Counted from the stretch's first letter, positions 36,001 to 42,000 are shown. The stretch: DNA of 64,000 nucleotides from an uncultured Mycoplasma sp. (GCA_947642635.1 CANRTI010000005.1:13842-77841), one strand, 5' to 3'. Numbers are program-made.

Positions 36001-39000
36001 TTATCAAATAAATAATGCCCAAGAATATAATAATCTAGTTAAAGAATATTTAGATAAAGGGATAAATTATCCAACTGCTTTAGCTAAAGCTCTCAAAATT
36101 AATTTTGAATTTAATTCTAATGATTTATTAGGAATAAGTTATTTAAAAGCTATTAAAAGTAATAACTACCATATTGAACCTAAAACAATTCAAAGAACTA
36201 ATAATTATTTAGACACTTTAGAAGATACATCTATTATCAGTGCCACAAATATTCGAGAAAAAATTAAACAAAATAAAGATATAACTAAATATATCCCTAA
36301 GATAGTTACTCCTTTTATTAAAAATATTTCTTTAAATAATTACTTTAAAACTTTAAAATACAAAATAATAACTGAACCAGACTTAAGCAAATATTTAGAT
36401 GTCGATGAAGGAATCGAAAATAAATTAAAAAAAGTAATAAATAATGTTTCTAGTACTGATGAATTAATTGAAAAAACTAAATCCAAAAGATATACTTACA
36501 ATAAATTAAGAAGAATGCTCATCCATATTTTAATTGGTTTTACCAAAAATGATAATCAAAAATTAAAATTAGATTATATAAAAATATTAGGATTTAATAA
36601 CAAAGGTAAAAAATATTTAAATAAAATAAAAAAAGATTTAGATATTCCTACTAAACCATCTAGAAATTCATTAGTATATAATTATGAATTAAAATGTGCT
36701 GCTATTTATGATTTAATAACCAATGACAATAATTTAGAATATGAAATAAGTAATAAACCTTTCAAGTTATAATTACTTATTTTTTTATTCAAAAAGAAGC
36801 CTTAACGGCTTCCCTAGATAGAATTTCCTAGGCCTGCGATAAGCCTAGATTGGCCTATTTTAACGTCTTCGTTGACGAATATAATTAACTAACTTAAATA
36901 AATTAAACTTTGTATAATAGATTTCATACATATTGGGATCAAATTTCTTTGATTCTAAGATTACCATATTCCTAATAACAATGTAATTAATTTTTAACTT
37001 ATTTAAATCATTTAATTTTTTAAACTTAATATATTCTAAAAATTCTCTATCTTTATCATAACCAACGTATTTATTTTTATTATTTTCAAATATTACCATC
37101 GTATTAGGATATGTTCTTTTTACAAATACATATCTATTCTTGTAACCCATGAACGCGATCAAACCAATATCTATTAATTGCTCTTCTAACTTTCATTTGA
37201 CTCCCATATTTTCTATTATACCAATAACTCATTACTGAACAAAATGCGGCATTAAAATCAATATAACCTTTATTATACATATAGTATACTTCTTTAACTC
37301 GTTTCTTAATTTTTTCATAACCTTCTTTTCGAAGCTTACAAACAGTTTTCTTATTAATTACTTTATAAGTATACCCTAAAAAGGAAAATCCCTCTTTAGC
37401 ACTTACTATTTTAGTCTTTTTTGAATTAAGTTTCAACTTATATTTATTATTTAAAATATTTTCTATCTCTTTTAAAGCATTTATTAATACTTTTTTATCA
37501 TGATGAATTAGTATAAAATCATCCATATATCTAATATAATGTTTTACTCTTAAATTATGCACAATATAGTGATCTAATTCATATAAATAAAAAATTGATA
37601 GAAATTGACTAGTCATATTACCAATCGGTAATCCTTTACCATAATCATATTGTGGTAAACGATCCATCTCCGTTTTTAAATGGGGATGTTTAGCTAAATA
37701 CTTCTCTTTAATATCTTTAATTTTCATATTAATATAGGAATTATTAGTACTATCAATAATAATACTTAAAAAGTTATATTCTTCTTCAGTAAGTTTATCT
37801 TTAACCATTTCTTTTAAAACTTCATGATCAATTGAATAAAAATACTTACTAATATCTAATTTCAATATATAAAAATCATCATATTTTTTGTTTACTTCAA
37901 TATATTTTTTCAATAATTTAATTCCATAATCAGTGCCCATTTCTTTTCTAGTTGCAATATTTCTTGGATCTAAATATTTTGCTAACTTCCTTTCTAAAAC
38001 ATATCTTGCTATAAAATGATTAATTAATTTATCACCAATATCTAATGCCATCACTATTCGATGTTTGGGTTCTTTGATTAAAAAGATATTATATTTTCCA
38101 CCATAGTAATTACCAGTTCGCAAAATATCTAAAATTCGATTTATATTTTGAAATTTATTTTTTTCAAACATATACACCTTATGTTTATTCTTAACATTTT
38201 TAGATATTTCTAATTCAAATAGATTTAAAATAGTTTCTAAGCTAACAAACTCTTTCATTTTTTATCCACTTATATACCATTTTTGTAATTTGTTCTAGTT
38301 CATTTGATTTTGCCAAACATTGTTTTTCATTAATGTATTTTCTCTTATATGCTCTTTCTAAATAGAAATCTAACATATTAATTTTCCCAAGTATTTCTAC
38401 TTGTATTTGTCTTTTTTTATCTGTATCATCCACTTCATTTGCAACATAGACAAGTTCTAATATTTTAAGGGCATCTTTATAAACCATATCTTTCGTTAAA
38501 AATTCTTTTCTGGGAAAATTAACTAACAATACTTCTAAGTTCAAAATAAATCTTTTAATACTCTTAACTATTAAAAATTTTTCACTGTGATATTGCATTC
38601 TCTATTACTTCAAGAACATAGTCAAGTTCTTCAAGATTGAGCTCCCGAATTCTTTTCTCAATTTTTGCAAATCTCTCTTCTATAGATAGTTCACTAATAC
38701 CTTTTTTTAAAACGTTCTTATATGAATTTAATTTTTTAAAATTTTTGTCTTCAATAACTTCTTCTTTATCATAAACTTTATATGATACTTCCGCTTCTTC
38801 TAAAGCATTAATTACTTTATTATACGCTGTTTCTGGAAAACCGACACCACCTTTCTCGGCAACTATTTTATAACCAGTTAAGTAATGTAAAATTATCGCA
38901 TCATCACCAAAACAATTATAAAATTTTCCAGATTTTCGGAGTTCAATTACATCTTTTCTTATTTTGACCACCTTTTAACTCTTTCTATCTATTATCGCAT

Positions 39001-42000
39001 CTCTGAACAATTCTATCTAGCTATTTTAAAGTCTTTGTTTGACTTCTACTGCCACCTCCTATTCTATCTATAATTATATCATGTCAAGAATTAAAAAACA
39101 AAAAAATTCTACTTTAAATTTGCCCTTTTTGTCAAATAAATATCGCTAAATACAACACTTTAAAAGAAGGACAATTGAAAAAAATTACTATTTATACAAA
39201 AATATATTTGATGGTATTTTTTTTCTTATCACACACACATCTCCTAACTTTTAAGTATTATCTTTAATTATTACATGTGGTAAAACACCTAGCTATCAAT
39301 GTATTTCAAAACAGATTGTAACATGACTTCAATAATATAACAAACAACCATAAAAAATAACAGAGTAATAGATAAGTTACGTATAACTTAATCATCTCTG
39401 TTTTTAATTTAGATAAAAATTAATCATTTCATCTTAGATAATCTTTGTCCTCTATCTTCTCAAAATTATAGCCATAACCATAATATCTTTCAAGTTATAG
39501 TGGGCTGGGCGAACCGAATTCGTATTACTCAAATTGTTGATATTGACATTGCCGTTCGAATTCACATTCCACGCACGGTAACTGCTATTAGCGGAATAAT
39601 AACCGTAACGCGACTTTTCTTTATCAAGACTACCTAGTATAATTATATCTAATTCATTAACCAAACACAATAATATAACAATTATAATTATTCAAAAAAT
39701 ACGTAAAAAAATTTATTTTTATTTTGTACAATGTAAATTCAAAAATATTTACTTTTTTCTATTTTAACACCTAAAAATTTTTAATAGTATAATTCACAAA
39801 TAAAATATTACACCAAAAATAAAAAGGTCACTTACATCTTTTTATTTTTACCTGAATTTTCTAAAATTCGAAAACGCTCATTGAATTTATTCAATGAGCG
39901 TTCATATTTTTTACAATCGCCTGAGTGCCAACTGCCACTCTTGGCGATAATTAATTTCTATCACATCTAGTTGATTATCATGTATGGATCTGTTTGTGTC
40001 CCTGTTCCTGTTATCGCTATATTGGATTTCAGATAGAAGACTGGGCGAACCGAATACGTACTATTCAAACCGGCACGGCCGACATTGCCGTTCGAATACA
40101 CACTCCACGCAGTGTAAGTGCCGTTGCTATACCGACCGTAACGCGACATGGTCCACTCATAATTATTGTTTGGTGCACTTGTATCGTTTTTACTTAGATG
40201 CATCCAGCTTGTTTTACATGTTGGGTATGTACTGCTTGAGTTATAACTACAATTTGTCCCTGTTTTACTTAGTCCAAAGTAATAATCTGCTAAATACATT
40301 AATCCTATTTTGGCACTTACTGTTGTACTCCATGCTTGTTCTTTTTGTACCATTTGCGCTGCTGTTACATTTGTTGCTGTATGAGGATCAGAATTGTATA
40401 TATCTCCATATTTCCAGTTCACTGTCTCTATTTTATCAGCCCATCCTGAAGGCATATATGTACTATTAGTTAGGAATGCACTTCCATTTATTTGACTATA
40501 TACCTCACTTTGTGGCCATTTTATATCTGTTGTATAATTACTATACCATCTATATCCTGTGTTTAATGCCTCTTTCTTTATTACTTTAAATCTATTACTT
40601 TTATCTATTCCTATTATTCGGTACATGTATTTGTCTTGATCTCCTGTACATGTACTTTTATTCGTTGTTCCAAAACAGATATAGTTTGCTGGGTTTGTTC
40701 CATAATATCTTGTTTTTAATTCATCTTGGGCTACTCCTGTTGGCTCTTGTACTCCACTTATTGGTTTATCTACTATTTCCCCTCCAGTACTTCCTGGTTT
40801 TTTATAATTAACTGTATCACTTGCTGATTTTGTATTTCCGTATTTATCTTTTAAGAAAGCATATAGTTCTTTTTTTTCTGTATCACCAGTAAATTCATAA
40901 CTAGGTGTTACTGACTTACTAGTACCAACACTAGTCCATTTAATTCTTCCTGTGGCAGCACTATCACATAAACTAATATTATTAGTAGGCACAACGCAAT
41001 ACTCAGTTACATCATTATCAGTCCATGCTAAATATAAACTAGTTTTTAAACTTGTAATTTCTCCTGGATTACTACTTCCACCTATATTAAATGTAAATGT
41101 TCCTCCAACAGCAGTTTTCAAAGTGATGCTATCACTTACTGATGGTGAAATATTATTAGCAGCATCTTTCAAAAAAGCATACATCGTTTTTGTTCCATCT
41201 CCACTAGATATAGTTACAGAACTTACCTCTACTTCAGTTGTCCCATTTGAATCAACCCAACTACATGTAGCACTATCATTAGTTCCTGTAATACAATATT
41301 GAACAATTGATGAATCAGTCCAACTTAAATAAGCAGGTATTGTAGTACTACTTGTTGCTGGTGGATTTTCTTTTCCACCTAAATAAAATGTAAAAGCCCC
41401 TGGAGCATCTTTTTTATCAAAATATAAATAACAATATGTTGCTTGATTAGTCGTAACCGAAGCTACTTTTTCAACACTATTAAAACTTAAAACATCTGGA
41501 AGTTCTTCTTGATTACTATCATAACATTTTGATTTATTCCCATTAAATATAAAACCATCAGTTGGCCAAGTATCTGAATCGTGTTCCACATACTCCCCTG
41601 TACCTAATCCAGTCTCTTTTAAAATGGCAAAAGATCCTTTCTTTAGTTCAATACCCCCATCATTTAAAACCATTACTTCATCTAAGGTAATATCTTTATT
41701 TTTACTATTAAATGCTCGATAACTTAAATATAAAAACATTCCTTCCATAACAATTAAAAATGCGATTAATGATATAAAAACTTTTTTGTTTTTAATATTC
41801 AATTTCATTTTTTACCTCTCCTTCTATCTCTCATTTTTACCTCACTACTACTAATTTTCATCTAAGTACACATAACAATCACCATTCGAACTCGCATCTA
41901 TATTAATAACCCCATCAACATAATTAACAACTCCTCCATTAGAACAATAACTCTGTTTTACTGAAGAAAGTTTATAACTAATCCCACTTGGAATTACTAA

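Follow-up and report, generated by a model that had tools for sequence, protein, structure and literature searches.

An active chromosomal diversity-generating retroelement with a MutS domain I-like accessory gene in an uncultured Mycoplasma sp. and the probable use of several template repeats

A 64,000-nt stretch of DNA from an uncultured Mycoplasma sp. (GCA_947642635.1 CANRTI010000005.1:13842-77841; the whole stretch is called the window below) carries a diversity-generating retroelement (DGR). Its components are a surface target gene with a variable repeat (VR), a template repeat (TR), a reverse transcriptase (RT), the accessory protein Avd and a small MutS domain I-like protein (MSL). The element is active, or was so very recently. 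It is probable that we are dealing with a chromosomal DGR of the MSL class whose VR draws on several TRs, the remote ones being used in trans. For the lineage, both this multi-template behavior and a self-contained TR-RNA gene are well supported; for the strain of the window, both are supported by one perfect remote donor and by consistent indirect evidence. That the locus is a complete DGR with an MSL accessory gene had been proposed in an initial annotation made from the sequence alone, and the profile searches, the placement of the RT and the comparison of VRs all turned out in favor of this proposal.

Alleles of the VR and their donors

The initial annotation placed the target gene at 39967..41808 and a non-coding TR about 0.5 kb downstream of it. 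This was borne out by a direct repeat whose copies are offset by 536 nt; one copy is intergenic (TR, 39614-39497) and the other located in the target gene (VR, 40147-40033). The repeat is 115-118 nt long, and in the 64 kb its cores of 14 and 16 nt are confined to these two sites (0.04-0.14 occurrences expected). When the window was searched for further copies with up to three mismatches, the TR core was found only at the two known sites and the spacer motif of the TR (see below) at one. The TR has a GC content of 44% and the VR of 53%, compared to 31% in the surrounding DNA. The VR had been taken for the last ~25 codons of the target gene; among the 613 codons it rather covers ~554-592, and the 21 codons behind it are invariant. 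Between the TR and the VR of the window, 14 mismatches are located at TR adenines and 14 elsewhere, and the TR is one codon longer (3-nt indel). Since these mismatches are not adenine-specific, the window pair alone falls outside the usual definition of a DGR.

Alleles of the target were compared next to the TR of the window, designated TR-A. The 90% cluster of the target protein contains eight versions of 611-613 aa. There are no differences among them in the first 545 and the last 22 residues, while the ~37-residue VR differs throughout, and the ~12 kb of flanking DNA are ~100% identical among assemblies with different VRs. Out of 80 aligned VR columns, 32 vary among the alleles, and these comprise 21 of the 24 columns with an adenine in TR-A and 11 of the 56 others (Fisher 1.4e-8). 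This adenine-centered, targeted hypervariation indicates that the element is active now or was very recently. The prediction that the VR is hypervariable was thus confirmed with eight assemblies of an otherwise identical locus. Variation is not confined to TR-A adenines: each of the eight alleles has 6-12 non-adenine (non-A) mismatches to TR-A, from which the alleles also differ by being 1-3 codons shorter.

TR-A is 100% identical in all eight assemblies and also in L005 and L010. At its ATC codon the alleles encode R, R, W, Y, R, T, T and W and never have NTC, and its CGT codon behaves like AAT in the alleles. A non-A scaffold (AGG/AAC) is common to alleles L001 and L100, and another one (TCG GGT GGT plus TGG) to L002 and L004, the scaffold-sharing alleles coming from different samples. 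L001 and L100 differ from each other only at codon positions 1-2, L002 and L004 also at one third-codon position. These shared scaffolds suggest that the alleles in question are independent products of one adenine-rich donor that is not TR-A. Judged from the sequences, TR-A templated none of the eight sampled alleles.

Further TR versions were recovered by searching with the open reading frame (ORF) that overlaps the TR. One of them, TR-B, belongs to a separate locus: a target-like paralogue whose C-terminus is non-variable ends 40 nt before it, and a helix-turn-helix (HTH) gene follows. TR-B was detected in six samples of the same series as the window locus and is near-constant over 12 contigs, where the stretch encoded by the TR shows no more than one amino-acid change. 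In the three samples with both, the contig coverage of the window locus and of TR-B was 4.75/5.31, 3.96/3.85 and 8.20/8.30. The VR of allele L099 has the same length as TR-B, and all of its nine differences (9/9) are located at TR-B adenines, with no non-A mismatches (P ~1e-5 per test). Hence a TR other than the neighboring one templated at least one allele. The other alleles appear to imply at least three or four further, unrecovered donors, which are hard to recover because TR units are rarely called as genes. The TR-ORF variants P0075, P0076, P0078 and P0080 originate from other studies and strains and were not counted as donors here. An origin of the window VR (and, less fully, of the L003 VR) as a mosaic of TR-A and TR-B was examined by eye and rejected, as many switches would be needed and AGG is present in neither TR.

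The TR loci themselves gave additional observations. The target paralogue at L092:3-1070 and L006:3-866 has a fixed C-terminal loop (…TASSTVVARAIHITGFISSNWVDLPYNVRPVFYL) without similarity to a TR; no GC-rich hairpin follows it, and a TR gene (TR-B or TR-C) is located directly 3'. Positioned after a non-variable paralogue, TR-B and TR-C are TRs without a VR of their own. The TR versions P0075-P0083, L006:936 and L098:352 differ mostly where other versions have adenines, with codon swaps such as GAT/CGT/AAT, TGG/CCT/AAC and AGT/ACT/AAT. From these patterns it looks as if the TRs themselves were adenine-mutagenised or overwritten from VRs in the past.

Of 99 RT relatives, the analysis retained the best 80. 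RTs with 76-81% identity are encoded by metagenome-assembled genomes (MAGs) of uncultured Bacilli from rabbit and goat gut, and the host of the DGR belongs to the gut Bacilli. The spacer motif was found at 42 loci when species-representative genomes were scanned with it; nearly all of these loci have a proper adenine-rich TR upstream, and about half follow pairs of a p287-like gene (the gene that precedes the target in the window) and a target-like gene. Twelve TR units were counted in Lapin-002_bin32, eight in Lapin-021_bin69, six in each of three MAGs and four in each of two MAGs. Up to four TR units are located on a single contig, and among the RT relatives kept there is one RT locus per MAG. 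A strict TR/VR pattern with 31 specified bases, searched on genome contigs, returned one locus only, the pattern being too strict. At the end of contig L120 (JBJEIL010000118.1), which is labeled as a Methanobrevibacter MAG, the bacterial TR spacer motif was found at the very contig end, probably due to binning contamination or a chimeric contig end.

VRs of relatives were fitted to TRs by adenine-aware alignment, scored as A mismatches / non-A mismatches / gaps. The VR of RGIG2961 fits a second, non-adjacent TR with 14/0/0 and the TR beside its target with 18/10/2. For the VR of Lapin017, a TR on another contig gave 15/2/0 and the adjacent TR 17/1 plus 4 codon gaps, and for the VR of JAZSOX the non-adjacent TR gave 13/3/0 and the adjacent TR 12/9/2. 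A relative with a single detected TR showed a clean 15/0/0. This clean fit indicates that the RT family is canonically adenine-specific and that the 'non-canonical' patterns track template choice.

Layout of the locus and the TR-RNA gene

ORF calling revealed six ORFs between 36.8 and 42.7 kb, all on the minus strand, so that the co-orientation of the DGR parts described initially is correct. The same is true for the order target-TR-msl-avd-RT, with two genes between TR and RT and a small ORF, here named orf100, at the end (target-TR-msl-avd-RT-orf100). Neighboring ORFs overlap by 17 nt (msl/avd), 17 nt (avd/RT) and 29 nt (RT/orf100). The features are:

41851..42714, minus strand: p287-like gene upstream of the target, encoding a membrane-anchored protein of 287 aa
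39967..41808, minus strand: target gene (variable protein, 613 aa), alleles of which differ only in the VR
40033..40147, minus strand: VR, codons ~554-592, direct repeat with the TR
40041..40054, minus strand: GC-rich 14-nt element TTCGGTTCGCCCAG at the 3' end of the VR, resembling an initiation of mutagenic homing (IMH) site
39916..39948, minus strand: GC-rich inverted repeat directly past the target stop codon
39873..39902, minus strand: terminator-like hairpin of the target gene, dividing the target and TR transcription units
39352..39647, minus strand: TR-A RNA gene, composed of TATAAT box, upstream strand, TR, ~150-nt spacer and terminator
39497..39614, minus strand: TR-A template repeat, intergenic, direct repeat with the VR
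39436..39459, minus strand: invariant spacer motif GAAGATAGAGGACAAAGATTATCT, identified by covariation and complementarity
39352..39402, minus strand: TR-RNA terminator hairpin (helices P4/P5) and T-run, identified by covariation
38582..38971, minus strand: msl (129 aa), MutS domain I-like with a C-terminal helical part, identified by Pfam and fold comparison
38242..38598, minus strand: avd (118 aa, isoelectric point (pI) 9.3), identified by Avd profiles
37134..38258, minus strand: DGR RT (374 aa), identified by profiles and its PDB relative
36860..37162, minus strand: orf100 (96 aa according to gene callers), kept 3' of the RT in all close relatives
34960..35260, minus strand: decayed 3' fragment of a second target gene (pseudo-VR), identified by homology to the target 3' end

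The target protein starts with a membrane anchor, continues with two repeats of ~106 aa and ends with a DUF6273-like domain, in which the VR is located. The target itself matches DUF6273 with E 0.06, and two of eight paralogous C-terminal domains score above the Pfam cut-off. The tandem repeats are spaced by 318 nt (…YLSWTD…YAFLKD…, window 40846-40876 and 41164-41194) and are probably Ig-like stalk domains. A p287-like gene is located ahead of 10 of the 19 target-like-gene loci in related genomes, and pairs of p287-like and target-like genes are present in L103, L106, L110, L112, L127, L133, L137, L138 and L139. A Pfam search with the 287-aa protein (41851..42714) gave zero matches.

VR and TR share the GC-rich 14-mer, after which their flanks diverge (TCTTCTATCTG for the VR, CCCACTATAAC for the TR). 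The inverted repeat behind the target (39948-39916) has 12 pairs, four of which show compensatory changes in nine sequences. It is kept after the VR-bearing targets of nine relatives and absent after non-variable paralogues. An IMH-like element and a downstream GC-rich inverted repeat are therewith present, and their functions are predicted.

In the TR-A gene, the TATAAT box (39647-39642) is followed by the upstream strand AGGTAGTCTTG (39635-39625). The spacer motif of the TR-RNA genes reads GAAGATAGARGACAAAGATTATCT. For 33 distinct TR units, taken from the present genome and its relatives, the 3' regions could be aligned over ~170 nt, and RNAalifold predicted 36 pairs, 18 of them with compensatory changes. 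In this structure 98.2% of the cells are paired, compared to 87.4% after shuffling and 40-50% when the partners were slid; covariation scored 0.40 versus 0.19, and none of 500 shuffles reached 0.40. In helix P1, the TR 3' flank (39503-39492) pairs with the spacer motif (39458-39449), with one covarying pair (UA 22 / CG 11; CCCA..GAGG versus CCTT..GAAG). The P4/P5 terminator shows compensatory changes in 12 of 15 pairs and is followed by the T-run. The upstream strand, with the consensus GGTA[AG][TA]CTT[GA], is found in 57 of 59 distinct units, in 53 of which a TAnAAT box is located 6-8 nt before it, and at 39635-39625 it is complementary to the 3' part of the spacer motif. By analogy to the Bordetella DGR RNA, P1 is a candidate template:primer duplex and the pairing of upstream strand and spacer a candidate stop duplex. 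On the basis of these sequence features the TR is an autonomous small-RNA gene spanning ~39647-39352. A consensus scan for promoters and terminators was uninformative in this DNA of 31% GC (36 matches, 43 expected), and an Rfam search over 34.5-43.5 kb gave only a PyrG leader match at chance level and no intron or retron RNA. The contigs L007, L008 and L009 start at window position ~39375, inside the TR-RNA terminator and spacer; short-read assembly breaks inside the TR-RNA gene are what a multi-copy element would cause.

Proteins of the cassette and genomic neighborhood

The RT matches Pfam RVT_1 (E 5e-17) and phrog_1423 (E 3e-69). Its best PDB relative is 8ub7 (E 2.4e-24), followed by group II RTs (2e-9) and retron RTs (8e-5). 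Length, catalytic Asp positions and motifs of 8ub7 match the Bordetella DGR RT (bRT) of bioRxiv 10.1101/2023.10.23.563531. GLPIGNMTSQ and YMDD of the RT align with IPIGSLTSQ and YMDD of bRT, and the motifs of the DGR clade (motif 4 [I/L/V]GxxxSQ and YxDD) are present. Rival NCBIfam models scored far under their cut-offs (TIGR04416 83.6 bits/300, retron St85 50/235, Drt3a 61/200), and PADLOC returned generic RT-level matches only. The LPIGNMTSQ and YMDD motifs had been read initially as those of a DGR RT, and by these comparisons the RT is indeed of the DGR type, closest to that of Bordetella, rather than a group II, retron or Abi/DRT enzyme. The Avd-like ORF at 38242..38598 was likewise recognized: it matches phrog_3206 ('Avd protein of DGR', E 3e-16), and full-length matches below the curated cut-offs were obtained with NCBIfam DivGenRetAVD (E 6.5e-10) and Pfam bAvd (E 4.5e-6).

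The resemblance of the 129-aa ORF to MutS domain I, noticed at first sight of the sequence, was corroborated by Pfam MutS_I (27.2 bits, gathering score 20.6) and by its fold. The AlphaFold (AF2) model has a mean predicted local distance difference test (pLDDT) score of 86, its top 50 Foldseek PDB matches are all MutS/MSH domain I, and it superposes on MutS/MSH over 61-70 residues with a root mean square deviation of 1.2-1.8 A. Sequence-only PDB searches with MSL or an MSL profile did not find MutS, so the relationship to MutS is shown only by Pfam and by fold comparison. Among 29 homologues F17 is invariant and N19 nearly invariant; in a profile alignment, F17 stands opposite MutS F36 and N19 opposite E38. 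By this alignment MSL keeps the stacking Phe, while the catalytic-site Glu is replaced by Asn. The MSL family contains 485 clusters at 50% identity, and among the best 150 clusters listed almost all members are stand-alone proteins of 110-160 aa. The identical MSL protein is present on more than 20 contigs of various metagenome assemblies. With 129 aa (112-283 aa in the published class) and a cassette that contains avd and, as no cassette protein matched HRDC, lacks HRDC, MSL agrees with the published description of its class.

The last ORF of the cassette had been called 'orf96'. The ORF exists, but it is a conserved gene of 96-100 aa that overlaps the RT stop codon by 29 nt. Compared by hhalign, the profiles of orf100 and MSL match (probability 82%, E 1e-5, 59 columns, 18-residue deletion), and Pfam MutS_I is touched by two of ten orf100 members (best E 0.024). 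The protein has a Lys where MSL has the stacking Phe, and its AlphaFold model is poor (pLDDT 50). From these matches orf100 is probably a second, degenerate MutS_I-like protein.

The DGR is chromosomal and flanked by genes for miaA, a tmcAL-like nucleotidyltransferase and PNPase. In L002:8181-12390, compared with the window from 36791 downwards, a HTH gene and seven unknown ORFs replace the tmcAL-like gene after orf100, which suggests that the downstream border of the DGR is a rearrangement or insertion point. The decayed target copy at 34960-35260 (minus strand) has a pseudo-VR that is not A-rich and a frameshift, and is located inside an ORF-free gap of ~950 nt. It adjoins a gene for an Rpn-family recombination-promoting nuclease / putative transposase (33858-34691, minus strand). 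The relatives L012 and L013 have intact extra VRs 3' of the RT in the equivalent position. The copy was considered as a hidden donor and rejected, as it is decayed, of VR type and not A-rich. On the other side of the DGR two large ORFs of 924 and 668 aa (43443-48225, plus strand) adjoin the element in all sister assemblies and gave no Pfam or PHROG match; the 924-aa ORF encodes repetitive, charged, coiled-coil-like sequence with internal repeats of ~630 nt.

A prophage-like block with every gene on the minus strand occupies ~1-23 kb of the window. It includes genes for the large terminase (5993-7534), a DnaG/DUF927 primase (13811-16495), a SNF2 helicase (19277-20695) and a serine recombinase (21504-23279), and its end adjoins tRNA-Thr (24053-24128) and tRNA-Val (24136-24212), the likely integration site. 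A prophage origin of the DGR was rejected, as the prophage stops near 23-24 kb and housekeeping genes flank the DGR. Between 51832 and 63383 (minus strand), three successive giant surface-protein genes (525, 797 and 1893 aa) encode Cadherin-like beta-sandwich repeats, and one of them has a cohesin domain.

Proposed mechanism, alternative explanations and known systems

By homology to Bordetella, the msl-avd-RT-orf100 operon would supply the RT-Avd enzyme together with two MutS domain I-like accessory proteins. The duplex between TR 3' flank and spacer would allow cis-primed, adenine-mutagenic cDNA synthesis, and the cDNA would replace the VR at the GC-rich IMH-like element, helped by the inverted repeat past the target; both steps are modeled on the Bordetella element. 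In this lineage several TR-RNA genes share the spacer and the IMH-like end, whereas their loops vary in length and some of their fixed codons, such as one for a hard-wired Trp, are non-adenine differences. A single RT can probably use them in trans, and template choice would add changes of length and scaffold to adenine mutagenesis. MSL might bind the mismatch-dense, sometimes unequal-length cDNA:VR heteroduplex via its MutS-like face and shield or stabilize it against host mismatch repair, such that the mutagenised strand becomes fixed; orf100 may be a partner of MSL. The idea of a shield is consistent with the 5-10-fold inhibition of a Bacteroides DGR by MutS, the host protein lowering retrohoming to this extent (bioRxiv 10.1101/2024.11.15.621889). 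In the widest form of this model, a 'template library' DGR, one msl-avd-RT operon would serve 4-12 TR-RNA genes per genome, any of which may rewrite the same VR, and MSL and orf100 would let mismatched heteroduplexes escape repair. We give this wider form an even chance.

An alternative is that TR-A is the sole donor, and that the non-A changes and indels are due to a sloppy RT, slippage on AAY codons or integration errors. TR-A lies next to the target in intact form, variation affects 21 of its 24 adenine columns, and non-A-to-N changes in 23% and length differences in 7% of DGRs have been reported by Wu et al. (PMC5758913), where they were attributed to the RT or to integration. However, sloppiness of this kind does not sit well with non-A states common to groups of alleles from different samples, with one allele that agrees with TR-B at every non-A position, or with an ATC codon of TR-A that never appears as NTC, and closely related RTs give clean fits of 14/0 and 15/0. 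This explanation is therefore regarded as unlikely. It is also conceivable that each genome uses only its cognate TR and that the mismatched alleles are VR segments or target 3' ends acquired from other strains by recombination. Many TR variants circulate in related strains and samples, and sharing of one genome by TR-B and the window is shown only by coverage, which would suit this scenario. On the other hand, the flanks are nucleotide-identical up to the VR in eight assemblies and recombination tracts would need to be confined to ~110 nt each time, TR-B was found at equal depth in three samples, and single contigs of relatives carry two to four TRs with a VR that fits a non-neighboring one, so that recombination from other strains seems improbable. 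A dead, decaying element in which TR-A has drifted away from the VR would account for the window mismatches, only 50% of which are at adenines, for the indel and for the decayed second target fragment at 34960-35260. It is very hard to reconcile with eight different VRs in an otherwise identical background, with ORFs that are all intact and conserved, and with an intact spacer RNA structure including the covarying CCCA/GAGG pair, and is considered highly improbable.

Several points weigh against the preferred reading, namely a VR rewritten from several TRs with the help of MSL. A perfect donor was recovered for one allele only and the donors of the other seven are inferred. TR-B is located outside the 64 kb window, and its link to the same genome consists of the coverage agreement in three metagenome assemblies. 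VR variation was read from the assembled contigs of eight assemblies rather than from reads. MAG bins may mix strains, so that the TR counts per genome are upper estimates, four per contig being certain, and the best 80 of 99 RT relatives leave room for a second, more distant RT. The assignment of orf100 is built on one profile-profile match of 82% and two weak Pfam matches, and the mechanism suggested for MSL is purely conjectural.

MSL is a published class of DGR accessory proteins, found in 16 of 372 DGRs, always together with avd ('Architecture D'; Wu et al., 2018, PMC5758913), and three Bacteroides DGRs (Bfr/Bth/Bun) have MSL (Macadangdang et al., 2024, bioRxiv 10.1101/2024.11.15.621889). 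The locus described here shares with the MSL DGRs (Architecture D including Legionella, and Bacteroides) the small MutS domain I-like gene together with avd and a DGR RT, as well as a surface-protein target with a C-terminal VR. In contrast to them, the TR is located upstream of msl and two genes away from the RT, a probable second MutS_I-like ORF is present 3' of the RT, and the TR appears as an autonomous multi-copy RNA gene, with the adjacent TR seemingly not the donor of the sampled VRs. MSL has a pI of 5.6, whereas 7.2 +/- 1.7 was reported for the class.

The DGR of Bordetella phage BPP-1 (mtd-avd-TR-brt) contains the best solved relative of the RT, and IGxxTSQ, YMDD and Avd are found in both systems. 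In the Bordetella DGR RNA, TR 117-129 pairs with spacer (Sp) 47-56 for cis-priming and the upstream strand pairs with Sp 59-70 (bioRxiv 10.1101/2023.10.23.563531). Likewise, a structured spacer that pairs with the TR 3' end, an upstream strand complementary to the spacer, and a GC-rich IMH-like element with a downstream inverted repeat are found at the present locus. Unlike BPP-1, the element is chromosomal and not phage-borne, contains msl and has several TRs, and its TR RNA comes with a separate promoter and terminator, whereas that of BPP-1 is located inside avd-TR-brt. In addition, ~85 nt separate the IMH-like element from the inverted repeat, which is located past the stop codon, and priming is predicted by analogy.

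DGRs with more than one TR have been noted before, including a Stenotrophomonas DGR with two TRs (Yan et al., 2019, PMC6642488). Elements with remote targets or multiple TRs (Treponema denticola; Stenotrophomonas) resemble the present one in that the RT acts in trans and more than one TR is recorded. There, however, one TR usually serves many VRs or each TR its own VRs, whereas here 4-12 TR genes per genome share the spacer design, VRs match non-adjacent TRs, and alleles of one VR in one clonal background would derive from different TRs and differ in length. Full-text literature searches for dispersed libraries of autonomous TR-RNA genes served by one RT found no description, which is not proof of absence.

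In silent-cassette antigenic variation, such as that from Neisseria pilS to pilE, an expressed locus is rewritten from silent donors that differ in sequence and length. The transfer from pilS to pilE is a RecA-dependent DNA gene conversion. The present system is similar in that one expressed locus would be rewritten from a donor library, but it would do so by an RNA template and error-prone reverse transcription, each transfer being also adenine-randomised.

The locus is a new member of the known MSL class, and its multi-template variant offers a possible explanation for 'non-canonical' mutagenesis in DGRs. Compact and active, with eight alleles, a well-defined template RNA and a probable second MutS_I-like partner, the system would be suited to asking whether cDNA:VR heteroduplexes are shielded by MSL from mismatch repair. 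For engineered DGR mutagenesis, the promoter-strand-TR-spacer-terminator design also provides a modular template cassette that is ready for use. DGR finders would mis-score such elements, or overlook them, if they require mismatches to the nearest TR to be adenine-specific. DGRs are thought to be limited to adenine-coded positions at a fixed length, a limit that a library of TR-RNAs used in trans would lift; if this applies generally, a large part of the 'non-canonical' mutagenesis that surveys ascribe to RT infidelity would be accounted for by alternative TR donors.

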